A stretch of DNA of 64,000 nt from positions 4,996 through 68,995 of the forward strand of contig DAOULT010000051.1 of NCBI GenBank assembly GCA_034417895.1. The letters run 5' to 3'. Below, in pieces: positions 28,530 through 62,550 of the stretch. Within the stretch, counting starts at the first letter, position 1. Each line of letters opens with the position of its first letter. The stretch comes from Anaerolineae bacterium (GTDB lineage Bacteria > Chloroflexota > Anaerolineae > CAZYHC01). Position numbers and translations under genes: made by a program. The notes beneath the pieces were generated by a model. That model had not been told where the DNA came from. It did no database searches and saw only the letters and a program-made list of their open reading frames with translations.

Positions 28530-30149
28530 TTATGCTCCTTTTGCGTTGAGAGTTGAGAGCAATCCATCTCCTATCTCCCATCTCTCGCGTATCTCTTCTA
28601 AAGCTGTGCCTTTCATTAAAAAGTATCGCCGGTGGGGATATTCGGCCATCAACTCGCTGTTCTCGACCGCGCCCCGGTCGAGGGCATATACGATATCGGA
28701 GTCCAGAGAAGGGCTGTTCTGGCAGAACTGAGCGCCGTACTCCGTCCAGCCCTTCTCCGCCGACACAAACACCAGAGCGGGGCGCAGGTTTGCCTCCTCT
28801 ACCGCCCGCAGAGGCGCGGCGGTGACGTCGTACAGGCCCTTTAAGGAAGACAATCGCAGGGGGAGGTAGAGAGCCAGATTGCCCGCCACTAGAAGGATCA
28901 GAGCCGGACGGAGCGTGTTCCGTGTCCACAATCCGTGAAATCTGTGACCAAAATCCGTGTTAGCCATCTCCCAGCTCTTCTCTATCCCTCTGGCCGTAAG
29001 CAGCAGAAGCAGGGGAAGGGCCTCGTAGTAGTAGCGGGGGCCGTATACTGTGGCGCTGACCCAGTACAGGGTGTGGGCCAGCACCAGGCACAGAAAGGCC
29101 GCGCCCAGGAGTTTATCCCCATTGTCCCAAATGCCTGGTGCTGCCGTAAAAGCCTGCTCCGTGCGCGCTGTGGGTTCCATCGGGGGGTGTGAACGAAGGG
29201 CGGGCCGTGAAATCCGTGAAGGAAATCCGTGTCTGCCAGGCAGGAGCAGAGCGATAACCACAAAGATGAGGCTAAGCCCCGGCCAACCCAGGAAATCGGC
29301 GGACAGCTTCAACAGGTCCCACAGAGCGTTAGCCAGCCCTGCCGTCAGGGTGTGGCCGTCAGGCCCCACCTGCGGCCCAAAGCCCAGCCGGTCGTAAGGC
29401 CAGTAAAGGCTATAGAGGCTGACAGAGGGTTGGCCCGTCAACTGAAAATTGTAAAGCGGCAGGAGAGCAGCCAGCGGCAGAAACCCGACAGCTATGAGCA
29501 GATAGCTAAGCTGCCTGGCACTGGGAGAAACCTGGTTTCTGGATAGTTCGTGGAGCAGGCTCCACAAGATCAGGGGCGCGGCCAGACTCAGAGCCGTCAG
29601 CGGCCTGATGAGAAAGGCCACCCCCAGGGCCGCCCCGGCCAGAAGCGGATAGGGCCAGCGGCCTCTGTTGAGCCTGCGGGCGAAAAATAAGATGAAAAGA
29701 GAGATGGCGAACAGGCAGGTGGGGTGAGACATATAAGTCCCGGCCAGGATCAAGAAGAGAGGCGAAGTAAGCCCCAGTCCGGCGGCCAACAGAGCCGTAG
29801 AGCGGCCATATAGCTCCTGGCCCAGCAGATAGATGACCACTATGGACAACGCCCCAAAGAAAGGATTGACCAGCCAGGGACAGCCCAGAAGAACGCCCGC
29901 GCTGAGAATAAGGGCCTGTCCCGGCGGGTATTTGGTAAAGCGCCTGCCTTCGTAATCTATGATGAAAGGGACGTGGAAGGCGTCAGGGTGCGACGGCGTG
30001 GCGGCGTAGAGCTTTCCCTGGGCGAAAACTTTGGCCTGAAAGAGGTAAGACACTTCGTCCTCAACGTGGGGCAGCCGCTCAAAGACGACGGTGGAGACCA
30101 GGGCGGCGCTCGCCAGGGCGACCAGAAAGAGCAAAAGCGGCGTCTTCAC
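28530..30149 (-). CDS. GT-C fold membrane glycosyltransferase (GT39/PMT-ArnT-like), without the C-terminal repeat domain.
   Basis: Polytopic N-terminus with the conserved acidic loop motif (HVEDEVSYLFQAKV) typical of polyprenyl-phosphate-sugar dependent GT-C enzymes. 4-nt overlap with the upstream ATPase gene. Confidence 0.6.
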   Translation of the reverse strand: MKTPLLLFLVALASAALVSTVVFERLPHVEDEVSYLFQAKVFAQGKLYAATPSHPDAFHVPFIIDYEGRRFTKYPPGQALILSAGVLLGCPWLVNPFFGALSIVVIYLLGQELYGRSTALLAAGLGLTSPLFLILAGTYMSHPTCLFAISLFILFFARRLNRGRWPYPLLAGAALGVAFLIRPLTALSLAAPLILWSLLHELSRNQVSPSARQLSYLLIAVGFLPLAALLPLYNFQLTGQPSVSLYSLYWPYDRLGFGPQVGPDGHTLTAGLANALWDLLKLSADFLGWPGLSLIFVVIALLLPGRHGFPSRISRPALRSHPPMEPTARTEQAFTAAPGIWDNGDKLLGAAFLCLVLAHTLYWVSATVYGPRYYYEALPLLLLLTARGIEKSWEMANTDFGHRFHGLWTRNTLRPALILLVAGNLALYLPLRLSSLKGLYDVTAAPLRAVEEANLRPALVFVSAEKGWTEYGAQFCQNSPSLDSDIVYALDRGAVENSELMAEYPHRRYFLMKGTALEEIRERWEIGDGLLSTLNAKGA

Positions 30150-36063: not shown

Positions 36064-36442
36064 GGGTTCTCCTCAGGGAGTTGTTGTCAGTCCCTGTTCC
36101 CTGGCAGTCTTCCGGCGGTGATTATGGTGGGTCAAAAATCGCTCTCGCCAGGAGGGCAACCACGCCCCAAACGATTGTTTTTCAAGTATAGCATAAGGGG
36201 CAGTGGAAAGCCTGACATTTAGCCGACGATTTGCGGACAAGTTTCTGCCCCTTATGGGAGGTTTGTCACCTGGCCGCTGGTAGTCTGTCACGGGGCCAGG
36301 CCATTACTGCTAATGCTTTGCATTTGTAATAATAGCGCTTCTTCGTTCTTTTGTCAAGCGGGGAGGTGATAAAGAGGAGAGTAAGCAAAGGCCATCGGAT
36401 AGGATCCTGTCCGATGGCCTTCGAGGTTCTGGCCCGTGTCGC
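36064..36442 (-). promoter_or_regulatory. Long (~380 nt) structured 5' leader of mgtE. It includes a 12-bp perfect stem (cataaggggcag/ctgccccttatg on the transcript) and is a candidate Mg2+-responsive (M-box-like) riboswitch.
   Basis: Inverted repeat read at 36190..36260. mgtE genes are commonly preceded by M-box riboswitches. I cannot confirm the M-box consensus by eye. Confidence 0.25.
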
Positions 36443-36730
36443 TTACTTGAGCAGGACGGCGATCACCACCAGAGAAGCGCCCAGGATAAAACCAAAGAGC
36501 ACAATGGCTACCGCGACGTTGCCATTCTTTAGTTCTTCCATCTCGTTGATATTGGGCGTCAGCGAGTCGAAAAGTTTGATGGTGATGGGGAAGACGATGG
36601 CGAAACAAACGGCGGCCACAATCGTCCAGATAACGGCGAAAATCATATTGACTACGATGCGGCCAATATCAAGTCCGCCTTGAGGAAGGCCCGCCGGGAT
36701 CTCTCCTTGCCACAAAGGTGCAAACATCAT
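36443..36730 (-). CDS. DUF350 small membrane protein.
   Basis: NGNVAVAIVLFGFILGASLVVIAVL and earlier hydrophobic helices match the DUF350 pattern. Confidence 0.65.
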   Translation of the reverse strand: MMFAPLWQGEIPAGLPQGGLDIGRIVVNMIFAVIWTIVAAVCFAIVFPITIKLFDSLTPNINEMEELKNGNVAVAIVLFGFILGASLVVIAVLLK

Positions 36731-36851
36731 TCTACCTCCTTTTTATCTAAATGGTGATTGGTTGGTAGGTTCTTGGCCCACGCGCAATGGCGGGGGTGAT
36801 CTTAGAGCCTATCCGAAAATTGGTAAGGCGACCATCCTGGTCGCTGTCGGG

Positions 36852-37763
36852 TTAGTAACTGCGTGCGAACTCCTGCCAGTATTCACAGCCCCAGGCCTCG
36901 AAGACGCCAGCTTTGACCCAATCGCCAGGCCGTTCGGTGAAAACCACGAAGGTCCAGGTCCCGCTACTGCCCGGCGGGATATCTCCCTGTTTTTCCATCT
37001 CATAAATCCATACTTCTTCGGCCCACCAATCTTGCGTCCCGTCGGTCAGGACGAAATACGGATACCAGGGCGCTCTGATCGAGGAGTTGGTGCGGTTATC
37101 GATAGTGACCTCCACAGAGAACTTTTGGCCGCCGACCTGGGTTTCCTGCTCGTAGCGCATTTTGGCCCAGGTTGCGGTTAGCAGGCTGGCGCAATCGTTA
37201 CCACCCTCGCCGCCCCCGCCGCTGCCGCCCCCACCGCCGCCGAGTATGCCACCCCCACCGCCCCCGCCACCGCCGCCGCCGGTGAAGTCTTTGTCAGTGA
37301 AGTTTTTATCCTCCACGACCTGGCCTGTCTCGGTGTCTATGACGAAAAAGCTTTGCATGACGGCGTCCCAATAAGCCGTGGCCTCGATCTCTCCCTGGAC
37401 GGCAGAGACCAGGACGCTCAACTGGACCGGGAAGAGGAGCATGTATTTCCCGATGAGCAAACCCGTCACCACCATATCGGGAGACGGGTTCTGGAAGGCG
37501 CTGGCTAGAGCCACGTGACCCTCTACCGCCTGCTCGATCATCACTTTGTCATACTCGGTGGAAGCGGCCCACATAGCCACGATGGCTATCAGAGACCCGC
37601 TTTGGGAGTCCCTGGTCATATCGCACTCTATAACCCTATAGCCTTTCCCTTCCAGATAACGGGTTGCTTCCTGAGCGCCACTGACAGCGCTCACGGGCGC
37701 GACCAGCATGGTCGAGAGTAACATAGTTATGATCAGGGCTGCTATTATCCTGTACCGTGACAT
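36852..37763 (-). CDS. Secreted two-domain protein with a poly-Gly linker (paralog 1 of a tandem pair). Function unknown.
   Basis: Signal peptide. ~190-aa N-domain. GGGGGGGGGGGILGGGGGGSGGGGEGG linker. ~110-aa Cys-bracketed C-domain NDCASLL...WGCEYWQEFARSY. About 75% identical to the next gene. Confidence 0.7.
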   Translation of the reverse strand: MSRYRIIAALIITMLLSTMLVAPVSAVSGAQEATRYLEGKGYRVIECDMTRDSQSGSLIAIVAMWAASTEYDKVMIEQAVEGHVALASAFQNPSPDMVVTGLLIGKYMLLFPVQLSVLVSAVQGEIEATAYWDAVMQSFFVIDTETGQVVEDKNFTDKDFTGGGGGGGGGGGILGGGGGGSGGGGEGGNDCASLLTATWAKMRYEQETQVGGQKFSVEVTIDNRTNSSIRAPWYPYFVLTDGTQDWWAEEVWIYEMEKQGDIPPGSSGTWTFVVFTERPGDWVKAGVFEAWGCEYWQEFARSY

Positions 37764-37818
37764 TACCTTTCACCTCCTTTCCATATCGACCGTCTCATCC
37801 AGGCTCTCAAACACATAG

Positions 37819-37858
37819 TGGGCGAAACAGAACTTGAACTTGTGATTTCTTCCTTACC
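37819..37858 (-). pseudogene. Duplicated ~40-nt fragment of the 3' part of tRNA-Val (not a functional tRNA). It was carried along in the tandem gene duplication.
   Basis: tgggcgaaacagaacttgaacttgtgatttcttcctt versus the 3' part of the full tRNA at 38876..38912 (about 33/37 identical), then divergence. Confidence 0.6.
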
Positions 37859-37907
37859 TTGCACCCCCCTTCTCTCTCAGATTATCTCCTCTTCGAGTGG
37901 CGACTGG

Positions 37908-38813
37908 TTAGTAACCGCGTGCGAACTCCTGCCAGTATTCACAGCCCCAGGCCTCGAAGACGCCAGCCTTGACCCAATCGCTGGAGCGTTCGGTGTAAAC
38001 GGCGAAGGTCCAGGTCCCGCTGCTGCCCGGCGGGATATCACCTTGTTTTTCCATCTCGTGGATCCATACTTCTTCGGCCCACCACTCCTGCGTCCCATCG
38101 GTGAGGACGAAATATGGATACCAGGGCGCTTTGATGGAGGAGTTGGTATGGTTGTGGACGGTAAGCTCCACGGAGAACTCCTGGCCGGCGACCGCGGACA
38201 CCTCGCTTTCCTTCGGCCCATAGCGCATGTTGGCCCAGGTCGCGGTGAGCAGGCTGGCGCAATCGTTACCACCACTGCCGCTCCCGCTGCCGCCGAATAC
38301 GCCACCCCCGCCGTTACCGCCGCCGCCACCACTACCGCCCCCGCCGCTGAAGTCTTTGTCGGTAAAGTTTTTATCCTCCACGACCTGGCCTGTTTCGGCG
38401 TCCACGACGAAAAGGTTATCCACGACCGTTTGCCAGTAGACCTCGTTGTCGGTCTCTCCGACCACGACGAGCATCGGGACCGGGAAGCAGACTATGTATT
38501 TCCCGAAGAGCAAACCGGTTATCACCACGTCGGGGGGCAGATTCTGGAAGGTGGTGGCTAAGGCCATGTGCCCCAAAATCACCTGCTCGACCAGCGCGTA
38601 ATCGTACTCGGTAGAAACAGGCCACATGGTTACGTAGGCCAGCAGAGCGCCGCTTTGGGAGTCTTTGATCACGTCGCACTCTATAACCCTGTAGCCCTTC
38701 CCCTCCAGGTAACGGGTCACTTCCTGAGCGCCGCCAATGGCGCTCACGGGCGCGACCAGCGTGGTCGAGAGCAGGGTAACCATGATCAGGGCTGAGATCA
38801 TCTTATAGCGCAT
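37908..38813 (-). CDS. Secreted two-domain protein with a poly-Gly/Ser linker (paralog 2).
   Basis: Same architecture as 36852..37763. Conserved C-domain NDCASLLTATWANMRY...WGCEYWQEFARGY. Confidence 0.7.
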   Translation of the reverse strand: MRYKMISALIMVTLLSTTLVAPVSAIGGAQEVTRYLEGKGYRVIECDVIKDSQSGALLAYVTMWPVSTEYDYALVEQVILGHMALATTFQNLPPDVVITGLLFGKYIVCFPVPMLVVVGETDNEVYWQTVVDNLFVVDAETGQVVEDKNFTDKDFSGGGGSGGGGGNGGGGVFGGSGSGSGGNDCASLLTATWANMRYGPKESEVSAVAGQEFSVELTVHNHTNSSIKAPWYPYFVLTDGTQEWWAEEVWIHEMEKQGDIPPGSSGTWTFAVYTERSSDWVKAGVFEAWGCEYWQEFARGY

Positions 38814-38875
38814 AATTACCTTTCACCTTGCCCTTCTTTTTAGATTGCCTCCCCAAGCCCCCCGAAAAATCGTGA

Positions 38876-38949
38876 TGGGCGAAACAGGACTTGAACCTGT
38901 GACCTCTTCCTTGTAAGGGAAGCGCTCTATCCATCTGAGCTATTCGCCC
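38876..38949 (-). tRNA. tRNA-Val (anticodon UAC).
   Basis: Reverse-strand cloverleaf: GGGCGAA / TA / GCTC AGATGGAT AGAGC / G / CTTCC CTTACAA GGAAG / AGGTC / ACAGG TTCAAGT CCTGT / TTCGCCC A. Acceptor and anticodon stems pair perfectly. Anticodon TAC. No encoded CCA. Confidence 0.85.
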
Positions 38950-39086
38950 TCGTCTATTCCTACCACTATTATACAGGCGAAAGAACCTTTCGTCAAGGGC
39001 GATTTTGGGGGCTGGCCCCTGGCCTTCGGAGGTCGAGGCGGAAATGAGTCTAACAAATCTCTCGGTGTTCTCCGTGCTCTCCGGGG

Positions 39087-41546
39087 CTACATCCTGTGAG
39101 CCTGAGCGTCCAGGGCTTTTCTGAGGGCGTAGTGGTAATCTTCATTCTGAGGATCGAGGTTAAGGGCTTGCTGGATTTCGTACAGGGCATTCTCGATCAG
39201 CCCCGCCCGCACATAGGCCTCGTGAGCGTACCAGTAGTACCGGGCCTGGCGTCTGGGATCGTCGATATCGTCGTAAGTGGCCGCCTCTCTGAACTTATCC
39301 ACCGCCTGCTGGCAAAACTCTTCCCCCTGGAGGATAAAGGTTTCCCCGATCAGGCGATGGAGCGCGGGAGAGGTGGGGCGGAGGGCCAGAGCCTGGTAAT
39401 AAGTCTCTCTGGCCTGCTCGTAATCCTGCAAAGTGGCGTAGAGCTGGCCCAAACATTCCAGGCTGTCCACGTCGTGTTCGTTTATGTCCAGGGCGATGTG
39501 GTACAAATCTAAAGCTTGCTTGTAATTGCCTCGCCGCCCCCAACTCCGGGCCAGGCGGCGGATGACATATATGTTTTGAGGGGCAAGACGATAAGCATGT
39601 TGGTATCTGGAAATGGCTCGCAGGTCTTGTCCTCTCCGTTCCTCCTGATCTCCTTCGGCCATCAGTTTGGTGATCTCCAGCAGGCTTAAAGTTTCGGAGG
39701 CCAAAAATTGCCTCAGCTCTTGTGGGCCATTGTCGCGCTCCAGCCTGCGGCGCAACTCGGAATATCCGAACTGAAGGGAACAAACCTGCGCCGTCAGGCC
39801 CAACGAGCGCTCGAAAGAGTTAAGCCGCCTGGAAAGACCCGCTCGTATCTCCTCCTCGCTTATCCCCTCGAAGGGAGTTCTATCGTTCAGGATGATGAAT
39901 TCCTGCTCGTGTGCGGGATGGCCGAAAACCTGCGCCTTCTCCAGATGGCATTCCAGACGGCAGTAGTGATAGGCCACTGTTTTCAGCTTCTCCATCGCCC
40001 AGGAAACTATCGCCTGTGATCCCTCGATGGTACCCTTCAGGTCGGCGCTGACGGTCACGATCAGAAGACGATGGTTCTGGAGGGCGCTGGCATCCAGGTC
40101 GAGGGCGGCCACCACCTGCCCAAGACGGGCGAGGAAATCCTGCCAGGTCAGAGGGGACGGGGTCTTATCGGAGGCGATGGCGGCGCTTTTTTCGTGCGTT
40201 TTCTGAACCAGGTTTTCCCTGGCGATCACTTCCCCGACGATGGCTCCCAGCACCCGGAACAATCTGAGCAGCGAGGGGGCAAAGAAATCCTGTCCCGGCG
40301 CAAGAGGTTTTCTGGTCCCCAGGTATATCACGCCGTTGACCTGCCCGCCAGCGAAGGCCGGCACCGCCAGGGCAGCGGTGGCTCTCTCCTCGGGCTGATT
40401 GGCGATGCGCGGATCGTCAACCTCCTCCGCTCTCTGCACCACGATTTCCTGCCCATTCTCAAAAGCCCAACCGGACAACAGCCGACCGCGAATGATAGAT
40501 AGGGTGGGATTAAGGGGTATAGGAAAATTAGGGCTGACCGCTTTGAGTTTCAGGTTTCCGGTCTCGTAGGGAGGGCCATATATCAGACAATACAGGGCCG
40601 GATAAGCGACGCTGATGAGGCGAGCGATGGCTGAGAGAAAAGTATCTTGCCTGTACTGACTACGGTTATCCGCCGCACTGACCTCTGGCGGCTGCGGAGC
40701 AGAGACAGAAGCGTCTCGCAGACGCAGGCAGAAATCCACCATCGTCTCTACGAAATCCCAATCCTCAAAGGCGTCCAGGTAAGCGCCAACCTGGGCCTCA
40801 AAATTGGTCTGGTGGCCGACAGGCAGGCCCACAAATAGATAATAGCGCGGGGTGCTTATCCTGTAGAAATCCTTCTGATCGGTGTTCAAGTCGGTGGGGG
40901 TTACAACCACCTCTTGTTCGGCGCTGAGCAGGCCCTTAATGGAGGGTTCGGATAGCAAAATCGAAGCCGCCTCGGTGTTCGTCACTCTGACCATCCGGCC
41001 CTGGGGTTCGGCGGATTGAGCGGGGGAAGTTTTTCGGGAAGCGGCCAGGAGAGAGTTGAGAGGTAACTCGCGCTGACAGAGACAATGTAGGGCCGTATAT
41101 AGCAGTCTGGCCTGACAATGATTCGAGGCCCTGGTCAATTGATTGAGCGAAGAGCCAGGCCACCGATCCTGCTGTTTCCACTGCATCAGTAGCGCCCTGA
41201 GAGCGGCCACAGACAAATCCTCCCTGCTCTCTTCCAGCTCTTTTACCATCAAAGCTTCGACCAGATCGGCGAACTCAAATTCCCGGAATACTTTCTTGCC
41301 TCGCTGAACAGCGCGGGGCGAGAGAAGCCCGATTTTTATCCGATAGTCGAGTTCGTGATATTGCCAGCCGGTAAGGTCCAGCGCCACCCTGGCTCCGTAG
41401 CTTTGACCAGGCAAAAAACCCTTTTCCAGAAGCGTCTGGGTCGCTCTTTCATGGAACATATGGAACAGAGTCTTATCCAGCACGTTTGACTCCTTCTGGT
41501 CAGCGGCCTGGTGATCGATCATAGCCTTTTCTTCCGACTCTGCCAT
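39087..41546 (-). CDS. Large regulatory-type protein with a central GAF-like domain and C-terminal TPR repeats.
   Basis: GAF-like segment ...ATAALAVPAFAGGQVNGVIYLGTRKPLAPGQDFFAPSLLRLFRVLGAIVGEV. Several TPR units at the C-terminus (ALDLYHIALDIN..., YEQARETYYQALALRP...). Confidence 0.5.
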   Translation of the reverse strand: MAESEEKAMIDHQAADQKESNVLDKTLFHMFHERATQTLLEKGFLPGQSYGARVALDLTGWQYHELDYRIKIGLLSPRAVQRGKKVFREFEFADLVEALMVKELEESREDLSVAALRALLMQWKQQDRWPGSSLNQLTRASNHCQARLLYTALHCLCQRELPLNSLLAASRKTSPAQSAEPQGRMVRVTNTEAASILLSEPSIKGLLSAEQEVVVTPTDLNTDQKDFYRISTPRYYLFVGLPVGHQTNFEAQVGAYLDAFEDWDFVETMVDFCLRLRDASVSAPQPPEVSAADNRSQYRQDTFLSAIARLISVAYPALYCLIYGPPYETGNLKLKAVSPNFPIPLNPTLSIIRGRLLSGWAFENGQEIVVQRAEEVDDPRIANQPEERATAALAVPAFAGGQVNGVIYLGTRKPLAPGQDFFAPSLLRLFRVLGAIVGEVIARENLVQKTHEKSAAIASDKTPSPLTWQDFLARLGQVVAALDLDASALQNHRLLIVTVSADLKGTIEGSQAIVSWAMEKLKTVAYHYCRLECHLEKAQVFGHPAHEQEFIILNDRTPFEGISEEEIRAGLSRRLNSFERSLGLTAQVCSLQFGYSELRRRLERDNGPQELRQFLASETLSLLEITKLMAEGDQEERRGQDLRAISRYQHAYRLAPQNIYVIRRLARSWGRRGNYKQALDLYHIALDINEHDVDSLECLGQLYATLQDYEQARETYYQALALRPTSPALHRLIGETFILQGEEFCQQAVDKFREAATYDDIDDPRRQARYYWYAHEAYVRAGLIENALYEIQQALNLDPQNEDYHYALRKALDAQAHRM

Positions 41547-41706
41547 GGCTATCTCCTTCCTTTTCCCTGATATAAATCATTCCAGACAAGTATTATTAGT
41601 ATACCATAGATCTGAAATTTGTCAATATTCTGGTATAGAAGATCAAGTCGCGGATTGCCACTGATAAATAATTGTGAATGACAAGATTTTTATGAAGAAT
41701 CAGTTA

Positions 41707-41735
41707 TTGACAAAAGTATTTTTATGTGGTATAAT
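41707..41735 (+). promoter_or_regulatory. Consensus sigma70 promoter TTGACA-17-TATAAT in an AT-rich islet. It drives the small ORF at 41823.
   Basis: TTGACA at 41707..41712. 17-nt spacer. TATAAT at 41730..41735. AGGAGG RBS 7 nt before the GTG start. Confidence 0.55.
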
Positions 41736-41822
41736 TCCAATTAAAGTCTGAGTAAAATGAATTCAACCATGATCAAACGATAAATCTACTTCTAAAAAGA
41801 ATTTTTTCCAGGAGGTAGGCGC

Positions 41823-42152
41823 GTGGCATACGTAGTTGAGTTTTGGAGATCCAAATCTGGCTGGCACCAATTGTCTAGAGAGGAGAGAGAAGTCATGGTT
41901 GCGAAGTGGGACTCTCTCCTTTTATCCCTGCCTACCGCAGACGGAGCAGAGCCAACCCTTAAATGGTGCTGCTTCAACCATTGCGCAACGCCTTTCGACC
42001 TCCTTGTCCTTAGCGCACGCGAAGAATACGATCTGGCCGAACCTGGGGCTGATGTCCTCCAATTTAACTGGTCTCGATATTTTGAGAAAGTGGCCTTCAC
42101 CATCGGCAATCTCACCGCTGAAGAATACGCCCGAAAGCTCCATCCCTCGTAG
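41823..42152 (+). CDS. Hypothetical small cytoplasmic protein (109 aa, GTG start) in a low-GC islet.
   Basis: Strong promoter plus RBS. Non-repetitive protein-like sequence MAYVVEFWRSKSGWHQLSREEREVMVAKWDSLL... No family recognised. Confidence 0.5.
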   Translation: MAYVVEFWRSKSGWHQLSREEREVMVAKWDSLLLSLPTADGAEPTLKWCCFNHCATPFDLLVLSAREEYDLAEPGADVLQFNWSRYFEKVAFTIGNLTAEEYARKLHPS

Positions 42153-42416
42153 ACGTACAACAAGTTGAGAACAATTTAGAAATAAATTTCCAGACAGTCA
42201 GCCGGCGACCAGACGGACACGCTTTGTCAAGTCCGGGTGATGCCCGTTGTAAATGACGGGCAAGGAGAGCGTCCCGATCTGTTTAATTGGGTGCATTTAG
42301 AACATATTTTCTGAAATTTTTTACCAAACCTTAACCTGATCTTTACCTAATAATAACCTTTGTGTGGTATGATATTAGTGTAGACAATTGAACTCTCCCT
42401 TGCCTCCCTTTAAGCA

Positions 42417-42465
42417 GGCCGTCTCCCTATCGATCGTGGGGGACGGCTTGTTTTATCAGGGCTGT
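42417..42465 (+). terminator. Rho-independent terminator (stem gccgtctccc/gggggacggc + TTGTTTTAT) on the plus strand. It is preceded ~60 nt upstream by an extended -10-like TGTGGTATGAT, giving a candidate ~70-nt sRNA.
   Basis: Hairpin and T-tract read directly. Promoter-like tgtgtggtatgat at ~42362..42375. Confidence 0.4.
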
Positions 42466-42514
42466 ATTGGTTTCTGGAAGCGTCTGAGCTTTGTTGAGGT
42501 GGCTGGCGTCTTGA

Positions 42515-45394
42515 TTACCTGACCCTCACCTGGCCTAGCAGTATCCGGTCCGCCCTGCTTTCGCTCAGGACGGACAGTCTTTCGCCGCTGGCCGGGTCGT
42601 ATAGCCCGACCTCGATGGTGTACTGGCCCGCTGGCGCCTCGGCCCCGACCGCTAGCTTGTACTCATCGACCACGATCTCACCCTCCAGCCAACTGGTGGT
42701 CGGTCGCCCGGCGGGGATACGATCCTGCTGGCCCCATATCCGGCTTTGCCCATCCAGCAGGTGAACGAAGGCGGTGTAAGAGGTGTCCAGCGGGCGCAAA
42801 GCCTGCCAGTAAAGCGTCAGGGGCAGCGACTCCCCGGCCTGCACCTGCTCTGCGGGCAGATCGTAGCCCAAAAGCGCCACCAGCCCGCCCAGGTCGGCCT
42901 CTATGGGGTGCTGGATTTCGGGCCTCTCGAAGAGCCTGGCCCAACCTTCGACCGGCAGGGTGGTCAGTTCGGCTTCCTGCTCCGTTTCGCTCCCGGCCTT
43001 CAGCGCTACGGTCAGGCGGTACTCCCCCGGCTCGACGGCAGCCGGGACGATGAAATCGTGCCAGCCGCGCAGGATTTCGCCCGCCTGCCAGGCGGTGGTG
43101 GGGTAGCTTTTGCCCGCCGGGGGGGATTCTCGTTCGGCGATGGTTTCGCCCCCTGCATTTTTCAGGCGCATCACCGCCCGATAGTTGGCCGTGGTCTTTT
43201 GCCTGGCCTGCCAGTAAAGCGCCAGACTGATCCTGTCGCCGGGCCGCACCGTCGGCGAGGCTGACAGGTCGTAACCGAGCAGGCGAATACCCTCGCTCAG
43301 GTCTAGCGAAAGAGGGTGCTCTGGCTCGACGGTGGCCGGGTAGAGAGCCGGGGTCACTTCCACAGAGCCGACATCAACTGCCGTTCCCAGGCGCTCCCCG
43401 CTTTCCTCTTCGTACACCAGGAAGCGCAGTTGATAAGCGCCCGGCGGCGTGGCCGGGGCGATGGGCACGAGGTAGTAGTCTATCGTCTTCAGGCCCTTTT
43501 CCCAGCCGGAAGTGCCCCGATAAGCGTTATCCAGCAGGAACTTATCGACCTGGCCGACCACGTGCCCGTTTTCATCGAGCAGCCTGACCGAAGCCTTGTA
43601 ATCCTTTTCGACAGTCCCCTCCCGCTGCCAGTGAGCCATCACCCAGGCTCGTTCTCCAGAAGGCGCCTTTTGTCCATTGACGTCCTCTGCGGGCCAGGCA
43701 GGGCCATAAGCCACGTCGGATAGAGTTAGCGCCTGGCCGAAAGTGACTCCCAGCGGCTCGAAATCGGGCCAGGCGGAAAAATCCACCCCGGCGTAAGGCA
43801 GCCGGTAAGTGACCATCTCGTAGCCCCGGTACTCCTCTTCGGCCACGAACTGGCCGTACTTTTCGAGCAGGAACACGACGTAGCCTTTCAGATTGGCCTG
43901 GTCGTGTTTGGTCACTTTCCAGCGATTGATGAAATGCACGGTGTCTTTGCCCTGGCAGGCGGCGGTTAGCTCGCGGGGTATGGTTTCGTCGTCTATTTCG
44001 AGGTAGCGATAGGCGGCCTGGCCGTGATACAGAAAGTCGATGGTGTAGTTGTGACGCTTTGCCCGGCGGGGGTCCCAGGGCAGGATGAAGACCGCTTTGG
44101 GGTTGGTTTCTCGCTCCATGTGGGCCACCAGGTCAACGGCGTGGCCGTCGAAGGCGTGGTACGGGGCTTCGCTCGCGGCCCAGACCTGGAAATAGTCGTG
44201 ACAGGTAGCCCAAAGCGTGAGGCAAAAAGGCGCAGCCACCAGCACGGGCAGAACCAGCCGGGCCGGAAGACGAACCTTTGCCAGCAGGGGACGGGCGGCA
44301 TCCCATACCACCGCCAGCGACAGGGCCGGGAAGACGTACACCACCGGCAGCGCTCCGATGGCCTTGCGGCAGGAAAGCGGCCCGAAAGAGGATAGCACGC
44401 TGGGCAAGAGCATGATCGCCCACCACGCCAGGCAAAAAAGGTGAGCCGGGCGCCTGATCTGCATCAGGCAGATGAGCAGGCCAGCCCAGAAACAAACGGC
44501 CAGAGCCGGATCGAGCACCGGGCGGCCCGGCAAACCGGCCTCCCAGGAGCTATCGCCCCGCAACCCGAAAGCGGCCAGCGCCCCCACCACGTTGCGGCCC
44601 AAAGCTCCCAGGACGCTGCCCTGGTTGACGATGGGATTGAGGATGGAAACCTGCCCGGCCCGCAGGGTGAAATCTTCGGGGTGCAGCAAAAAGTGGCCGC
44701 CCAACGGAGCGAAAACGAGCAGCGCCACCAGAACGCAAAGGATGAGCAGCCTGAACTGCTTTCGTAAAAGAGCCGCTTCGCTCCCGGCCAGAAGCCACTG
44801 ACCCAAAAAGAAGAAAAGCAACACGAAGGACAAAAACCGCGACGATAAATAAGTGTACATGGAAAGCCCCAGGAAAAACCCGGCCAGGACGAAATCGCGC
44901 CTGCGGCCCACGTTCAAAGCTCGCCACAGGAAGTAGAAGCAGACCGTTTCCAACAGGGGCAGGGTAATGAGCCGGTAGCCGATGCGGCTGTAGCTCACGT
45001 GCCAATAGGAAGTAGCCAGCCCCAAAGCAGTCAGGGCAGCCATCAGGCGCGAGCGCGGCCCACGAAACATCTGGCCGGCCATCAGGTAAGTGGTCAACAC
45101 GGTGGCGGTGCCCACCAGGGCGGCCAGCGTCCGCTGCTCCCGGATGCCGGGGCCGAAGAGGGCGAAGGTCCCGGCCAGCAGGTATTGCCACAGCGGTTCG
45201 CGGCCCGTGGTGCGGGGGAAGAAGATGCGCCACTGGCCGTCCAGCACTTCCACCGCATCCAGGGCGTAAGCGGCCTCGTCACCGCTGAAGCCCGGCGGCG
45301 CGGCGTCCAACTGGTACAGCCGCAGGAAGGCGGCCAGGGCCAGGATGAGCAGCAAAAAGGCCCAGTCCACTTTGTTCGTTGTTTTGGCGCTCAT
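42515..45394 (-). CDS. GT-C fold (GT39/PMT-ArnT-like) polytopic membrane glycosyltransferase with three C-terminal copies of the novel ~115-aa repeat domain (cluster gene a, last gene).
   Basis: True start is ATG 45394 (MSAKTTNKVDWAFLLLILALAAFLRLYQLDAAPPGFSGDEAAYALD...), overlapping the upstream stop (ATGA). The 390-aa N-terminal extension in track ORF 42515..46570 is Arg/Pro-rich read-through. C-terminal repeats ...LLGYDLSASPTVRPGDRISLALYWQA... and ...VALLGYDLPAEQVQAGESLPLTLYWQALRPLDTSYTAFVHLLDGQSRIWGQQDRIPAGRPTTSWLEGEIVVDEYKL..AGQYTIEVGLYDPASGERL. Confidence 0.75.
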   Translation of the reverse strand: MSAKTTNKVDWAFLLLILALAAFLRLYQLDAAPPGFSGDEAAYALDAVEVLDGQWRIFFPRTTGREPLWQYLLAGTFALFGPGIREQRTLAALVGTATVLTTYLMAGQMFRGPRSRLMAALTALGLATSYWHVSYSRIGYRLITLPLLETVCFYFLWRALNVGRRRDFVLAGFFLGLSMYTYLSSRFLSFVLLFFFLGQWLLAGSEAALLRKQFRLLILCVLVALLVFAPLGGHFLLHPEDFTLRAGQVSILNPIVNQGSVLGALGRNVVGALAAFGLRGDSSWEAGLPGRPVLDPALAVCFWAGLLICLMQIRRPAHLFCLAWWAIMLLPSVLSSFGPLSCRKAIGALPVVYVFPALSLAVVWDAARPLLAKVRLPARLVLPVLVAAPFCLTLWATCHDYFQVWAASEAPYHAFDGHAVDLVAHMERETNPKAVFILPWDPRRAKRHNYTIDFLYHGQAAYRYLEIDDETIPRELTAACQGKDTVHFINRWKVTKHDQANLKGYVVFLLEKYGQFVAEEEYRGYEMVTYRLPYAGVDFSAWPDFEPLGVTFGQALTLSDVAYGPAWPAEDVNGQKAPSGERAWVMAHWQREGTVEKDYKASVRLLDENGHVVGQVDKFLLDNAYRGTSGWEKGLKTIDYYLVPIAPATPPGAYQLRFLVYEEESGERLGTAVDVGSVEVTPALYPATVEPEHPLSLDLSEGIRLLGYDLSASPTVRPGDRISLALYWQARQKTTANYRAVMRLKNAGGETIAERESPPAGKSYPTTAWQAGEILRGWHDFIVPAAVEPGEYRLTVALKAGSETEQEAELTTLPVEGWARLFERPEIQHPIEADLGGLVALLGYDLPAEQVQAGESLPLTLYWQALRPLDTSYTAFVHLLDGQSRIWGQQDRIPAGRPTTSWLEGEIVVDEYKLAVGAEAPAGQYTIEVGLYDPASGERLSVLSESRADRILLGQVRVR

Positions 45395-48288
45395 AGCCCG
45401 GCTCCTTCCACTTCTATTTCGCTCAACTGGATGGCGTCTCGTCCGTCGGGGGTAGCCAGCCGTTGACCGCTTACGGCTTCGTACAGGCCGACTTCGAGCC
45501 TGTAACGACCGGGCGGCGCGTCGGACCTGATTTCCAGCCGGTAGTCGTCGGCGATGATTTCGTCCTGCACCCAACTGGTGGTGGGGAAAATCGGCGGGCG
45601 GTCCCGCTGGCCCCAGATGCGGCCCGATTGATCCAGCAGATGCACAAAAACGGTGTAACTGGTATCTGTCTCGCCTGGCGCCCGCCAGTAAAGCCGCAGG
45701 TTCAAAGTCTGGCCTGCTTTCAAGTTCGTCTCTTCTGTTTCGTAGCCCAAAAGCTCCGCCACTCCGCCCAGGTTCGCCCGCACGGGGTGAGCCACAGAGG
45801 GCGGCTCGAAGTTTCTGGGCCGCTCCCGCACCGTGACCGCGCCCAGCGTGGCCTGGCCTTTTTCCTCTTGAACGACTGAAGTCGTTACTACGCCTGCCCC
45901 CAGCAGGGCCACCGTCAACTGGTAATCCCCGCCCGGCAGGCGCCCGCTGACGACCATCTCCTGGCGGTCGCGCACTATCTCCCCTTTCTGCCAGGCGGTG
46001 GTGGGGTAGCGGGGACTGTTCAGCTTTTCGGCCCACACCTGGCCCGACCCGTCCAGGAAGCGCAGGGCTACGGTGTAGTCGCCCTTTACGTCTGTTTCGG
46101 CCCGCCAGTAGAGGACCGGGGCAAGTATTTCGCCGCCCTGAATTTCGCCGCCTTCGAAGTCGTGGCCTAGCAAGGTGATTTCGTCTCCCATTTTCTGCTC
46201 CAGGGCGTACCGCATCGTCAGCTCGTCCGCTGGCGGGAAGGCTTTCGGCCTGACTACCGCCAGGCGGCCCAGCGCCAGGTCGTGGCCCACTCCGGCCTCG
46301 CCCACCGCCTCCAGGGTGCGGCCCGTCTGGAAAGAGTACAGCCCGGCGTGCAAAGTGTACTCTCCCGGCGGAGTGCCCGGCAAAACCTGTAAGTCGTACT
46401 CGTCCACGATGAACGTACCTGGCTGCCAGCGGTCTGTGGCCCAGTAGCCCATCACCGGCAGGCGGTCCACCTGTCCCCAGGGGTGGCCTTCTTCGTCTGC
46501 CAGCCGCAGGTAGACGTTGTAACTTTCGCCCATTTCGGCCAAAGCCTGCCAGTAAAGCGTGACGTGACATTCCCCGCCCGACTCCACCCTGTCCGGGCGC
46601 AAATCGTAGCCTGAAAGTCGCGCCTGTTCGCCGAAGAAGCCGCTTACGGGGTGCGCTATCTGCGCTGGCGGCTCGAACCCGACCACCGGCCCCCGGTAAA
46701 TCCAGGCGTAGTCTATCCCGGCCAGGCGCACCACATGCTCAGCCTGTCGCCCCTGGAAGTAGTCCACCAGCCCGGCCAGAGGCAGGCCGCGTTGGGTCTG
46801 GTTGAGGTAGAAAACGGCGTAGTCCGCGCCCAGGGTTGGCTCGGCGTCGAACAGGTCTACCGTCCGCCCCCGGAAGAAAGGCTCAAACTGGCGGCTGTAC
46901 CAGGCGGCCACCTCCAGCTTCTCGGCCTCTGGTTTGGCGTTCAGGTAGCGGGCCGCCTCGTCCAGTCCCTCGCCCCAGCCGACCGATAGCGCCCAGGGAG
47001 CCAGCCGCCCGCCGCCGACCAGCGGATCGTAGTAAGTGATATAATACGGGAAATGCGGCAGGGCAAAAGCGGCCTGTAAAACCAGGGCGAAGCCACAGAG
47101 TACACCGAGAACACGGAGAGATTTGGCCTTAATCTCTGTGCCCTCTGTGGCTATAAAAAGGTGCCACAGCCCGAAAGCGGCCAGCACGTCCACCGCCGGA
47201 AAAATGGGCAAAAGGTAGCGGTCGCCTTTTTTGTGTCCCACCGTCACCAGCAGAGCGAAGCCCAGGGCGTAAAGCAACAGGGACAGTATGGCCCTTCGAC
47301 TTTCCCCCGCCCGGTTTCTGATCCACAGGAACAGGGCCGCCGCCAGCCCCAACAAAACCGGCGGCGTGCTCCTGAAAAGGAAGCTCACCGGGTAGAAAAG
47401 CGGGCCGGGGTCGGCTCTGGCCTGGCCGAAGAGAAAGGTGCCTTTGGCGTGGGGGGCGAAGGTGGCCGCCCTGGCGATGTCCCACACCGCTTTGATCGCT
47501 CCCAAAGGATCGACCCACAGCACCGGCCACAGAGCCAGCGCCACCAGAGCGGCTGCCAGGCTCCAGATCACGAACTGGCGAAGGCTTGAGCGCCCGCGAT
47601 GAATCAAAGCAACCACGCCCCAGAAGGGCAGGAGAAAAACGGCGGTCGATTTGGTCAAAAAGGCCAGCCCTGCGCACAGCCCCGAAAACACCAGGTAAAA
47701 CAACGAACGGAACAACGTAGAAAGACCCTTTGGGTTTTCAAAATCCAAAGGGTCTGCCAAATGAACGAGCAGGCTCAAAGCCGAAGCGATCATAAAAGTC
47801 GCCACCAGAGCGTCGTGATGAATGAAGCGCGAATGGGCCAGGTAAAAAGGGTCGAAGGCCAGCAGGAGGGCGGCGGCCACCCCCACCCCGGCTCCGAAAA
47901 GCTCCCGGCTCAGCCAGTAAACGGCCACCACGCACAGGGCGGCCAGCAAAACAGTCGGCATCCGCACGGCGGGCATCAGCTCAGGCGGGGCCGGATAGGG
48001 TATGGAATCCAGGAACTCCGCCAGGGGCAGGCCGCGCTGCCAGGCGTAAAGCGTAAGCCCGATGGCCCCTGTCCAGCGGGTGGTCACGGCTGGCCCGGCC
48101 CAACCCGGAAAGCTTTCGGCCAGGTTTCCACGCAGCAGAGCGGCCAGGAATTGGCCTGACCATTGCACCCAGTCCAGCTCGTCGCCGGTCAGAAAGAAGT
48201 CCAAGGCTAACGCTCGTGGCGCGAAGCCTAGCAGGAACAAAACGGCCATCAAAGCGCCTTCGCGCCTCCAATCGTTTCTTTCGCCCAT
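45391..48288 (-). CDS. GT-C fold membrane glycosyltransferase (GT39-like, GDELDWVQW motif) with three C-terminal repeat-domain copies (cluster gene b, paralog of 52088..54928).
   Basis: Start trimmed to ATG 48288 (MGERNDWRREGALMAVLFLLGFAPRALALDFFLTGDELDWVQW...). An alternative is ATG 48249. Three LSGYDL/LLGHDF/LLGYETE...LYW(Q/R)A repeat units. Confidence 0.7.
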   Translation of the reverse strand: MGERNDWRREGALMAVLFLLGFAPRALALDFFLTGDELDWVQWSGQFLAALLRGNLAESFPGWAGPAVTTRWTGAIGLTLYAWQRGLPLAEFLDSIPYPAPPELMPAVRMPTVLLAALCVVAVYWLSRELFGAGVGVAAALLLAFDPFYLAHSRFIHHDALVATFMIASALSLLVHLADPLDFENPKGLSTLFRSLFYLVFSGLCAGLAFLTKSTAVFLLPFWGVVALIHRGRSSLRQFVIWSLAAALVALALWPVLWVDPLGAIKAVWDIARAATFAPHAKGTFLFGQARADPGPLFYPVSFLFRSTPPVLLGLAAALFLWIRNRAGESRRAILSLLLYALGFALLVTVGHKKGDRYLLPIFPAVDVLAAFGLWHLFIATEGTEIKAKSLRVLGVLCGFALVLQAAFALPHFPYYITYYDPLVGGGRLAPWALSVGWGEGLDEAARYLNAKPEAEKLEVAAWYSRQFEPFFRGRTVDLFDAEPTLGADYAVFYLNQTQRGLPLAGLVDYFQGRQAEHVVRLAGIDYAWIYRGPVVGFEPPAQIAHPVSGFFGEQARLSGYDLRPDRVESGGECHVTLYWQALAEMGESYNVYLRLADEEGHPWGQVDRLPVMGYWATDRWQPGTFIVDEYDLQVLPGTPPGEYTLHAGLYSFQTGRTLEAVGEAGVGHDLALGRLAVVRPKAFPPADELTMRYALEQKMGDEITLLGHDFEGGEIQGGEILAPVLYWRAETDVKGDYTVALRFLDGSGQVWAEKLNSPRYPTTAWQKGEIVRDRQEMVVSGRLPGGDYQLTVALLGAGVVTTSVVQEEKGQATLGAVTVRERPRNFEPPSVAHPVRANLGGVAELLGYETEETNLKAGQTLNLRLYWRAPGETDTSYTVFVHLLDQSGRIWGQRDRPPIFPTTSWVQDEIIADDYRLEIRSDAPPGRYRLEVGLYEAVSGQRLATPDGRDAIQLSEIEVEGAGL

Positions 48289-48316
48289 TGGCGTCGTTCG
48301 TCTTGTCCGTTGCGCG

Positions 48317-50188
48317 CTATTGTGGCTCAAGCGTGACTTCTCCCAAAAGGATCTGGTCGTTGCCCAATCTTTCGCCCGTATGCGGCGAATACAGCCCCAC
48401 CGCCAGCCGGTAACGGCCTGGCGCAAGCTCTTCCCCGAAGGGCAAAAAGTGGCGGTCGGGGATGATTTCGCCCGGCCTCCAGGCGGTGGTGGGCAAAAGC
48501 CCGTGCAGAGGTGGGCCATCGGCCTGCGCCCGCACCTGGGGCGCGTCGTCGAGCAGGTGGACGAAAACGGTGTAATCAGCGTCCATTTCGGCCCTGGCCT
48601 GCCAGTAAAGCGTAAGTTCCAAAAGGCCGGATTCCTGCTCCAAATCGTAGCCCAAAAGCCGCGCCACTCCCCCCAGGTCGGCCCTCAGAGGGTGTTGAAT
48701 CTCGTCCGCCGAGGGGCGGAGGGCGTAGAAGATGCGGCGCTGGTCGTCGTAGACGCGCTGAATCAGGTAGTTTTCTTCCGCCCAGGCCAGGTAATCCGGC
48801 AACAGGAGCAGAAAGCGCCCACTCCAGGAAATGACCACCGGGGGGCGATATTCTTCCGTCTGGGCCAGAAGCTCCTCGACGGTCAGATACCCGCTCTTGA
48901 TTAGCACGATGGAAGTGTCGGCCAGGGAAGGCGGCGTATGCCGGCCGGCGCCAAAGACCAACATCTGGTCGTCGCTGATGATCCAATCGTGGGCGGTGGT
49001 GATCTTTTGCAGCCAGGCGACCGCGTCTTGCTCCCGGCCACCCTGCGGCGCGGCAGAGGCTTCGAGGTTGGCTTGTATCGTGGCCGGCAGGCTCCACAGG
49101 TAAAACGCCAGAGCGCCCAGCCCCAACCAGGCCAGTGGTGTTTTGCGCCGGGCGAGGTCGGTCAGGTGGCTCGCCATCTGGCCGAACGCTCCTCCGGCCA
49201 GGATAGCCAGCGGCGGCAAAAATACGGTCAGTTGATGGTCACGCAGGGGCGTATGTACCATCATGGTCGTAACCGCCAGTAGAAGCCAGACCGCAGCCCA
49301 CCAGATTGGCCGCGATTTTCTTAACCCCAGGGCCAGCCCGCCGTAAAGGGCCAGGATCACCAGCCCCCGGTGGGTCAGAAAATACTCGGCGATGCATCGC
49401 CCGTTTTGGAGAGGATTCAGAGGATAGGCTTCTCTGACCTGCCAGCGGAAGGCTACCACCTGCTCGTACATGGCCCGGCTGTCGAGGCTCAGAAGGCAGA
49501 GCAGCAAGGGCAGAGCCAGACCCAGCCCGAAAACGAGCAGATCCAGCGCTGTCTTCTGCCCTCTCCTCTCCTCCGAAAAGCGATGCCAGATGACGATCAG
49601 GGTCACCAGGAACACGGCGAAAGGGGAAAGCACTTTGATCAGCAGGCCAGCCGCCAAGCTCAGCCCTGATAGCGCCAGCCAGCTTCTCTGGCCCCGCCGA
49701 CAGTAGTAAAAAGCAAGGAGAATGGAAAATGCCCCCAACCCTACAGCGGGCACGTCGCCCAGGCAGGCCCTTGAGTAGAGAAAGAAGTCCGGGGTGATAG
49801 AAAGCAGGATCACGGCGGTGATGGCAGCCACACGCCCTGCTATCCTGCGGGCAATAAGCCCCACGGCCAGAAGGCCGGACATCGAATAGAGGACGATGAT
49901 CGTCCGCGCCGCCGCCGTCGTCGTGCCCAAAACCCTGAAAGCCAGGGCAATGGAAGCGATGAAGAGCGGGGCAGACAAAGAGAAAACGTCGGCGTATAGA
50001 CGCTGCCCGGAGTTCATCAGCCGGGCCAGCATTATGTGTGTTCCCTCATCGTTTTCCCAGCCAAAGCCCTCCAGGCCATGTAGCCGCACGACCAGAGACA
50101 AAGCCAGGATGCCGAGCAAAGCGACCCGGTAGATCAACTCGGCCCGCTCCATGCTTGTGGCCTCAGCGTCATTCCTTCCAGCGGCCAT
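48317..50188 (-). CDS. GT-C fold membrane glycosyltransferase (ArnT/GT83-GT39-like) with one C-terminal repeat domain (cluster gene c, paralog of 50189..52084).
   Basis: MAAGRNDAEATSMERAELIYRVALLGILALSLVVRLHGLEGFGWENDEGTHIMLARLMNSG... polytopic. C-terminal IQHPLRADLGGVARLLGYDLEQESGLLELTLYWQARAEMDADYTVFVHLLD...PGRYRLAVGLYSPHTGERL. Confidence 0.75.
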   Translation of the reverse strand: MAAGRNDAEATSMERAELIYRVALLGILALSLVVRLHGLEGFGWENDEGTHIMLARLMNSGQRLYADVFSLSAPLFIASIALAFRVLGTTTAAARTIIVLYSMSGLLAVGLIARRIAGRVAAITAVILLSITPDFFLYSRACLGDVPAVGLGAFSILLAFYYCRRGQRSWLALSGLSLAAGLLIKVLSPFAVFLVTLIVIWHRFSEERRGQKTALDLLVFGLGLALPLLLCLLSLDSRAMYEQVVAFRWQVREAYPLNPLQNGRCIAEYFLTHRGLVILALYGGLALGLRKSRPIWWAAVWLLLAVTTMMVHTPLRDHQLTVFLPPLAILAGGAFGQMASHLTDLARRKTPLAWLGLGALAFYLWSLPATIQANLEASAAPQGGREQDAVAWLQKITTAHDWIISDDQMLVFGAGRHTPPSLADTSIVLIKSGYLTVEELLAQTEEYRPPVVISWSGRFLLLLPDYLAWAEENYLIQRVYDDQRRIFYALRPSADEIQHPLRADLGGVARLLGYDLEQESGLLELTLYWQARAEMDADYTVFVHLLDDAPQVRAQADGPPLHGLLPTTAWRPGEIIPDRHFLPFGEELAPGRYRLAVGLYSPHTGERLGNDQILLGEVTLEPQ

Positions 50189-52084: not shown

Positions 52085-52087
52085 TCC

Positions 52088-57392: not shown

Positions 57393-57407
57393 TGGAATGT
57401 GATTTTA

Positions 57408-62179: not shown

Positions 62180-62550
62180 CAATGCTGTCTTTGCTCCGGG
62201 AGTCGGAAGTCCACCACCGAGCCTAGCAGGCTCTCGTAGCCCAGGCCGGTGGTGAAGATCATAGCCAATTGCACGATGGTAGGCTCGGCGTGGTTCAACT
62301 GCACCTGACGATAAACCACGGGCAGCAAAACTATCCCGCTGATAGCGCTGACGATCAACGAACGCGGGGAGAAAAAGCAGCCTCCCCGCTGCAAGGACCT
62401 CAGGTAATTGTTGGCGATGATGCCGACCACCAGCGCCAGATAGATGTACAACTGCCAGTCCGTGGTAAGAGCGTGGGCGGCTGTTGCCGCCTCGGTTCCT
62501 GGGCCTGCCGCCGCCCCGCTCAGATCGAAGTAATTAAGCAGCCAATCCAT
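62179..62550 (-). CDS. Small 4-TM membrane protein heading the GT-C array (possibly GtrA-like / lipid-linked sugar translocation accessory). Function unassigned.
   Basis: ATG at 62550 (MDWLLNYFDL...) with a strong RBS agaagggggg 10 nt upstream. The track start at 62559 is TTG. The stop overlaps the start of gene h by 1 nt (TGATG). Confidence 0.5.
   Translation of the reverse strand: MDWLLNYFDLSGAAAGPGTEAATAAHALTTDWQLYIYLALVVGIIANNYLRSLQRGGCFFSPRSLIVSAISGIVLLPVVYRQVQLNHAEPTIVQLAMIFTTGLGYESLLGSVVDFRLPEQRQH

Follow-up and report, generated by a model that had tools for sequence, protein, structure and literature searches.

Genomic islands that target tRNA genes leave an intact tRNA gene together with a direct repeat of its 3' part, which may start in the anticodon loop (PMC4383910; Williams 2002 cited therein). 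Among the 3919 islands of Islander, 3760 carry a 3' tDNA fragment and 2083 have anticodon-centred sites, and the known crossover sublocations are the anticodon loop, the T loop, and the T/acceptor junction (PMC4383910). Tandem segmental duplications are recognized by other hallmarks, namely same-orientation head-to-tail units, homology in the 5' and 3' flanks, and a novel joint between the units. Here, we analyzed a stretch of 64,000 nucleotides (nt) of an Anaerolineae bacterium (GenBank assembly GCA_034417895.1, contig DAOULT010000051.1, positions 4,996 to 68,995 of the forward strand), which is called the window below. It carries an intact tRNA-Val(UAC) gene followed by two related genes for secreted proteins (genes A and B), and the spacer between these genes holds the 3' half of the same tRNA. 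The locus shares features with both kinds of system, but the best explanation, and one that we consider probable, is an old illegitimate tandem duplication that clipped the tRNA-Val gene.

The tRNA gene, which was recovered by both ARAGORN and Rfam, and the two adjacent signal-peptide genes lie where a first-pass annotation of this DNA had placed them (Table 1). On the minus strand, the order is promoter, tRNA-Val(UAC), gene A, a 144-nt spacer with the tRNA fragment, gene B, a 121-nt tail, a DUF350 gene, and mgtE. The two units are arranged head-to-tail and are 80% identical over the coding sequence at the DNA level and 70% identical at the protein level; the earlier estimate had been about 75%. 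When the units were aligned, an unbroken stretch of homology began at tRNA position 37, crossed the leader, and reached the stop codon. The tRNA 3' half was 33/37 (89%) identical and the leader 66%, and the codons were 77% identical in the N-domain and 87% identical in the C-domain. The leader value bears out the earlier statement that the upstream regions ending aggtgaaaggtaATG were duplicated as well. When we compared the 5' half of the tRNA with the spacer, 14 of 37 positions (38%) were identical, which is chance level.

The tRNA fragment (37819..37855) gave a local alignment score of 54, and the maximum in 2000 shuffles was 26. It is the sole further copy of the tRNA within the window. The fragment had been described as the 3' third of the tRNA, but it comprises the 3' half (37 of 74 nt) and starts directly after the anticodon; the identity of 33/37 given before was reproduced. 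It contains the last two bases of the anticodon loop, the 3' strand of the anticodon stem, the variable loop, the T-arm, and the 3' acceptor strand. Reading of the sequence revealed two T-stem changes, which are not compensatory. Because of these changes, and because neither ARAGORN nor Rfam called the fragment, we regard it as a dead piece of a tRNA gene. The upstream tRNA, for which CCA is not encoded, scored 73.8 bits with RF00005 (gathering score 29) and forms a full cloverleaf.

Only four members of the two-domain family were found when 5.8 billion proteins were searched, and a search of 1.84 billion cluster representatives yielded a single cluster below E 1e-30. The related locus L001 belongs to the metagenome-assembled genome (MAG) GCA_964646625.1 of an uncultured Anaerolineales bacterium and has the order tRNA-Val, gene 1, a spacer with a shorter tRNA piece (ggttcaactcctgtttcgcccac), gene 2, DUF350, and mgtE. 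L002 is a 2.1-kb contig of the Joint Genome Institute (JGI) and carries tRNA-Val, one gene of the family, a gene for a secreted protein of 222 amino acids (aa), and a leader-like sequence with a tRNA piece at the contig end. L004 carries DUF350, preceded by the tail and the end of a gene that resembles gene B. The layout, with the fragment, recurs in a second Anaerolineales MAG and, in part, in two metagenome contigs. A genome scan for further loci returned only the MAG named above, and metagenomes yielded no further loci in either of two scans, made with protein patterns and with a promoter-tRNA DNA pattern, respectively. The 222-aa gene (L002:1164-1832) occupies the very site of the duplication joint, with a leader-like copy on either side. 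Neither the window nor L001 contains this gene, and it gave no family match. Kinship with the duplicated genes was rejected since the gene proved unrelated to them on comparison.

Within the window, an extension of homology beyond the coding sequence is seen on the 5' side (tRNA part and leader), and on the 3' side (tail and leader copy) it is seen only when the relatives are included. Here, we found that the tail after gene B, in the window as well as in L004, is homologous to the interior of the spacer between genes 1 and 2 of L001. In the window tail (CGTGGGCCAAGAACCTACCAACCAATCACCA), 26 of 30 aligned bases match this spacer, plus one 1-nt gap. The segment 37856..37907 aligns with the end of the same spacer and includes a copy of the leader that is not followed by a gene. 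This leader copy (GAGGAGATAATCTGAGAGAGAAGGGGGGTGCAAGGT) is identical to the leader of L001 gene 1 at 29 of 36 positions, and this score was reached by 0 of 500 shuffles. At 37859..37894, it is the only match to the leader pattern in the window, and it abuts the tRNA fragment, immediately upstream, in all three genomes (window, L001, and L002). The leader of the DUF350 gene also aligns with the leader copy, save for a gap of about 35 nt. Taken together, the two adjacent units point in the same direction, their homology exceeds the coding sequence at either end, and they are connected by a novel joint, which is formed by the leader copy against tRNA position 37.

In the scenario we favor, a segment of about 1.1-1.3 kb would have been duplicated in tandem in an ancestor of several uncultured Anaerolineales genomes. 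One head-to-tail event would suffice, with a unit that extended from tRNA position 37 across leader, gene, and tail and included the DUF350 leader. The left end of this unit would lie inside tRNA-Val, directly after the anticodon, and its right end where the DUF350 gene downstream has its ribosome-binding leader and start codon. At the new joint, the end of the leader (...AAGGTAA) would have come to lie against tRNA position 37 (AAGGAAGA...). Only AA is common to both sequences at the crossover, within the similar contexts AAGGTAA and AAGGAAG. This points to a microhomology-type event, and we infer that the recombination was illegitimate, neither homologous nor site-specific. Since the 5' half of the tRNA would not have been part of the unit, the second tRNA piece would be a nonfunctional fossil, and the upstream tRNA would have been kept intact.

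Subsequent lineage-specific deletions would have affected the noncoding tails and the fragment. In the window, the tail behind gene A would have become shorter by about 100 nt. In L001, the losses would comprise the tail that followed gene 2 and the initial part of the fragment; the latter loss could be explained by slippage between two AGGT motifs. In L002, the fragment would have been shortened differently and the 222-aa gene either gained or retained. The lengths retained in the three genomes are about 37, 26, and 26 nt, and the pieces of L001 and L002 start near the T-arm. Meanwhile, patches of the two genes would have been homogenized by gene conversion, and the domain cores would have diverged under purifying selection.

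To place the event in time, we compared orthologues with paralogues. Gene A shares 87-91% N-domain identity with L001 gene 1 and the L002 gene, and for gene B and L001 gene 2 the identities are 76% (N-domain) and 92% (C-domain). All paralogue pairs have N-domain identities of 64-66%, which is below the 76-91% of the orthologues. Since orthologues are closer to each other than paralogues, the duplication is, by this comparison, an old event that predates the split of these genomes. The first-pass annotation had envisaged, as an outcome that would speak against a duplication with the tRNA end, ancient paralogues conserved in relatives with no tRNA fragment. The paralogues are indeed conserved in relatives, but the fragment is conserved alongside them, and thus the event appears to be old, not absent. 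Omega was 0.13-0.26 between orthologues and 0.37-0.69 across the paralogue N-domains; by such estimates, both copies are under purifying selection.

For the gene-conversion test, we used the informative sites of four genes (A and B of the window, 1 and 2 of L001). Here, 49 sites followed orthology and were concentrated in codons 72-139 and 205-253. Another 17 sites were concerted (within-genome) and clustered at codons 5-47, 153-201, and 305. Moreover, the last 60 nt of genes A and B in the window are 97% identical. Because the concerted sites cluster at the ends and around the linker, we conclude from the alignment that the copies exchange sequence there by gene conversion and that the domain cores stay distinct.

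The locus thus shares with tandem segmental duplications the head-to-tail units, the homologous flanks, the novel joint, the retention of both copies under purifying selection, and a mosaic concerted evolution. It differs from them in that one breakpoint lies in a tRNA gene, so that a half-tRNA marks the joint, and in that the other lies at the ribosome-binding site of the next gene, which left a gene-less leader in the spacer. Genome evolution of this kind is ordinary, although the present case is unusually well documented, and current understanding is not overturned. The locus is a clean and datable example of a tandem duplication clipping a tRNA gene. Its outcome mimics the attachment-site footprint used by island finders, which makes it a useful false-positive case.

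Several observations weigh against this scenario. Public data contain only three to four related genomes, and none with a single copy that could serve as outgroup was found. The leader copy is closer to the leaders of the duplicated genes than to the present DUF350 leader, and therefore the right breakpoint rests on the alignment and on an assumed later deletion of about 35 nt. The position of the 222-aa gene in L002, between the leader copy and a second leader copy with the fragment, requires an extra insertion or deletion. The co-transcription of the locus and the link to DUF350, both described below, are inferences as well. Finally, the left boundary falls exactly into the anticodon loop, which is a standard crossover site of tRNA integrases (PMC4383910) and would be a coincidence if the breakpoint were random.

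The last point is the major argument for an integrase footprint. According to this explanation, the fragment would be the attachment-site direct repeat of a small element that integrated into tRNA-Val, or an unequal exchange between attachment sites would have duplicated an old island, and the integrase would have been lost since. The identity block indeed runs in direct orientation from the anticodon loop to the tRNA 3' end, which fits the anticodon-centred class of attachment sites (PMC4383910), and the locus is variable beside the tRNA, with the extra gene in L002 and the synteny break 5' of the tRNA in L001. With the islands compiled in that source, the locus has in common an intact tDNA and a correctly oriented cognate displaced fragment, the boundary of which, in the window, is at position 37 in the anticodon loop. 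However, the interval between tRNA and fragment (37856..38875) is only 1.06 kb long and holds a single gene, gene A, but no integrase gene (PF00589). This gene is not foreign DNA but is paralogous to the gene that adjoins the interval, with which it shares leader and tail. Pfam scans for integrases and other mobile-element domains, which covered most open reading frames (ORFs) of at least 180 aa at 1-55 kb of the window, detected no integrase or transposase domain (PF00589 included), and the genes called in the L001 locus (21 kb) do not include an integrase. The composition shows no anomaly, and the GC content near the locus is unremarkable. With PADLOC, no defence family was matched, and the matches obtained with PHROGs were all weak and concerned families of unknown function; one of them is a low-complexity match on the Gly linker of gene B. 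These arguments against integration are stronger than the anticodon-loop argument for it, and we consider a footprint of this kind unlikely. The first-pass annotation had offered both readings; with homology continuous from position 37, a duplication unit that spans the gene and the 3' part of the tRNA is the better supported one.

In another explanation, the fragment is kept by selection. If the half-tRNA and the leader worked as an RNA element, they might form a tRNA-mRNA processing site or a structure controlling the translation of gene B. Across the three genomes, the part of the fragment from T-loop to acceptor is better conserved than the surrounding leader, and, as read from the sequence, the leader motif GGUG(A/C)AA could pair with the acceptor 3' strand UUUCGCC. 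However, in each of the three genomes the predicted fold of the spacer was no more stable than those of its shuffles (z-scores between +0.4 and +2.0). In the window, pairing in the T-stem is broken by the two substitutions. The fragment differs in length among the genomes, and for the spacer there was no Rfam match, the tRNA alone being found. We consider retention as an RNA element highly improbable. A structured or functional RNA in the spacer was rejected as a candidate in its own right, since the folds of leader copy, fragment, and leader stayed at shuffle level and Rfam returned the tRNA only.

The leader-like copies, which flank every unit and also the unrelated 222-aa gene of L002, suggest another scenario, in which repeated leader modules 3' of tRNA-Val would form a cassette-like hotspot and mediate recurrent gain, duplication, and loss of secreted-protein genes through leader recombination. 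The deletion end points in the different genomes, which are at or near repeated leader and tail motifs, are consistent with it. However, only one unrelated cassette was seen, in one short contig, the leader pattern was not found elsewhere in the window, and homologous recombination between tandem repeats explains the deletions without a dedicated system. Such a hotspot is thus very unlikely. Proximity to a tRNA as a trait of the protein family was considered and rejected, since scans of other retrieved loci, four of them with distant N-domain genes, found no tRNA.

The features of the locus are compiled in Table 1.

Table 1. Features of the tRNA-Val locus in order of transcription (positions in the window; residues refer to the encoded protein)
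Feature	Position	Strand	Remarks
Sigma-70-type promoter (TTGACG, 17 nt, TATAAT)	38968..38996	-	11/12 consensus matches; upstream of tRNA-Val
Intact tRNA-Val, anticodon UAC	38876..38949	-	ARAGORN; Rfam RF00005
tRNA trailer and purine-rich leader with gene A ribosome-binding site (62 nt), ending ...aaggtgaaaggtaattATG	38814..38875	-	66% identical to gene B leader
Gene A, 301 aa	37908..38813	-	orthologous to L001 gene 1 and L002 gene
Gene A, signal peptide (predicted)	residues 1-25	-	
Gene A, N-domain (alpha/beta in the model)	residues 27-155, 38349..38735	-	
Gene A, Gly-rich linker	residues 156-183, 38265..38348	-	
Gene A, C-domain (most likely a beta-sandwich), Cys185 and Cys291	residues 184-301, 37911..38264	-	
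Shortened 3' tail of unit 1 (TAACCAGTCGCCAC), then gene-less leader copy (GAGGAGATAATCTGAGAGAGAAGGGGGGTGCAAGGT, about 37859..37894)	37856..37907	-	ends at putative duplication joint with tRNA fragment
Copy of tRNA-Val positions 37-73, regarded as dead	37819..37855	-	33/37 identical
Trailer copy and leader with gene B ribosome-binding site, ending ...aggaggtgaaaggtaATG	37764..37818	-	
Gene B, 303 aa, gene A paralogue of equal architecture	36852..37763	-	orthologous to L001 gene 2
Gene B, Gly-rich linker	residues 161-189, 37197..37283	-	
Full 3' tail of unit 2 and DUF350 leader	36731..36851	-	homologous to interior of L001 gene 1-gene 2 spacer
Gene for small membrane protein, DUF350 (PF03994)	36443..36730	-	Pfam 41.2 bits, cut-off 26

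The sequence of the promoter upstream of the tRNA is conserved in L001 and L002, and it is the only strong minus-strand promoter before that at 36357..36329. A scan for terminator-like sites between the tRNA and DUF350 returned none, and because of this the tRNA, genes A and B, and DUF350 are probably transcribed together from the tRNA promoter. In Escherichia coli, the thrU-tyrU-glyT-thrT-tufB operon is a bacterial tRNA-mRNA co-transcript. As in that operon, a strong promoter precedes the tRNA, and protein genes follow without an intervening promoter or terminator signal. Unlike it, our locus encodes secreted proteins downstream, and its co-transcription is deduced from sequence. Directly 3' of the gene B stop codon, there is an inverted repeat (GCGACCA-GGA-TGGTCGC, 36824-36845, minus strand) with a weak T-run 9 nt further on. 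It may act as a weak terminator or stabilizer; it was not called by the terminator scan and lacks conservation in L001. The mgtE gene has a 380-nt leader (36064-36442) and a TTGACA/TATTAT promoter of its own, and Rfam detected no M-box or other riboswitch in this leader.

Each of the two proteins starts with a Sec-type signal peptide (cleavage was predicted by eye between VSA and IGG), and its N-domain (about 130 aa) is joined through a Gly-rich linker to a C-domain (about 118 aa) that is bracketed by two cysteines. The N-domain of about 190 aa proposed before thus resolves into a signal peptide of about 25 aa and the shorter domain. The linkers measure 28 aa (gene A), 29 aa (gene B), 24 aa (L001 gene 1), 27 aa (L001 gene 2), and 17 aa (L002 gene). 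The variation expected earlier from slippage-prone tracts holds between genomes (17-29 residues). The linkers are not pure poly-Gly, however, since they contain S, N, and E as well as a conserved central VF or IL pair. They are encoded by imperfect GGN repeats, and the 3-nt repeats noted earlier in the Gly tracts were found at 37208..37281 and 38300..38347. In every linker of the five genes, a central hydrophobic pair (VF, IL, AL, or VL) lies within the glycines.

The whole proteins match no Pfam or NCBIfam family, as had been stated before, but each domain belongs to a wider uncharacterized family. A GRP (PF07172) match of 19.1 bits (cut-off 30) was confined to the Gly linker of gene B and is a low-complexity match, which does not assign the protein to this family. 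When a chimeric alignment of N- and C-domain was used as search query, the search was swamped by poly-Gly words and gave 14 matches. Profile searches with the separate domains uncovered a distant family for each of them. Thus, two uncharacterized extracellular domain families of Chloroflexota are defined, one of them with a confident model that lacks a match among solved structures.

The relatives of the N-domain are secreted proteins of about 540-615 aa, which contain the domain once or twice each, together with a Big_1 Ig-like domain. A KDFxxKNFGG-like motif is conserved at the C-terminal end of the N-domain; in our proteins, the domain before the linker ends in a conserved (K/D)(N/D)FxDKDF motif, which corresponds to KDFxxKNFGG in the distant family members. 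Structure prediction for the full-length protein with four sequences was unusable (predicted local distance difference test, pLDDT, 49). When the N-domain was modeled separately (AlphaFold2, 24 sequences), an alpha/beta structure with a pLDDT of 90.5 and a predicted TM-score (pTM) of 0.83 was obtained. Foldseek comparison of this model with the PDB gave no significant match (best E 0.07; query-normalized TM-score at most 0.36), and there was none in BFVD either (best E 6e-3; query-normalized TM-score at most 0.51).

The relatives of the C-domain follow Pro/Thr-rich linkers in proteins with SH3_3, J-domain, or kinase modules. Its first half (motif GQxFSVxLTVxN...W.P.FVLTDG) draws both CARDB-repeat proteins, at whole-library E-values of 4e-5 to 9e-4, and a weak ApaG match (E 0.18). 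With the C-domain profile, only sub-threshold matches to ApaG and Arp2/3 were obtained in the PDB. Direct scans gave no Pfam match to CARDB (PF07705) at or near the gathering score, and the link to this family is indirect, through the CARDB-repeat proteins. Most likely, the C-domain is an Ig-like beta-sandwich of the CARDB-like type. It differs from the CARDB and ApaG sandwiches by motifs of its own (WVKA, PG..W.F) and by the bracketing Cys pair.

A DUF350 gene also neighbors the duplicated genes in L001 and L004, and among more distant relatives the association recurs. In L011 (631-3161), two DUF350 genes come directly after the gene for P0010, a distant N-domain protein. In L005 (1-610), the gene in front of a DUF350 gene with 68% identity encodes a C-terminus similar to that of the N-domain protein P0019. 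Another family member adjoins genes for PspC/LiaF-like and small membrane proteins. The recurrence of N-domain and DUF350 across distant relatives suggests a conserved functional pair, and, judging from this conserved gene neighborhood, the N-domain proteins probably work at the cell envelope with the adjacent DUF350 membrane protein. This neighborhood link is testable. One may go further and propose that the tRNA 3' remnant and the leader modules constitute an integrase-free hotspot for gain, duplication, and loss of envelope-protein genes, with the 222-aa gene of L002 as one event, and that the N-domain is a new fold that serves as an envelope module with DUF350 in Chloroflexota. These two proposals are, in our opinion, quite unlikely.

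In the wider neighborhood, the synteny with L001 extends precisely to the 5' side of the tRNA and no further (window 39087-41546 against L001:7735-9673). In the window, a GAF-TPR regulator is located 5' of the tRNA, and in L001 this place is taken by a divergent MacB/FtsX ABC pair; the MacB/HlyD/ABC set of the window is located downstream of mgtE. PMT_2/PMT glycosyltransferase domains were found in a run of at least six long ORFs (window 42515-62182), in which the domain scan covered the ORFs before the three at 54921-62182. Four of these ORFs lie within 42515-54928, the overlapping long ORFs 42515-46570 and 45391-48519 belong to the run, and two more are present at 28530-30149 and in L001. 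The region 41500-42500, between the GAF-TPR gene and the first PMT_2 gene, is intergenic and AT-rich, with a GC content of 0.41-0.47 compared with about 0.58 around it.

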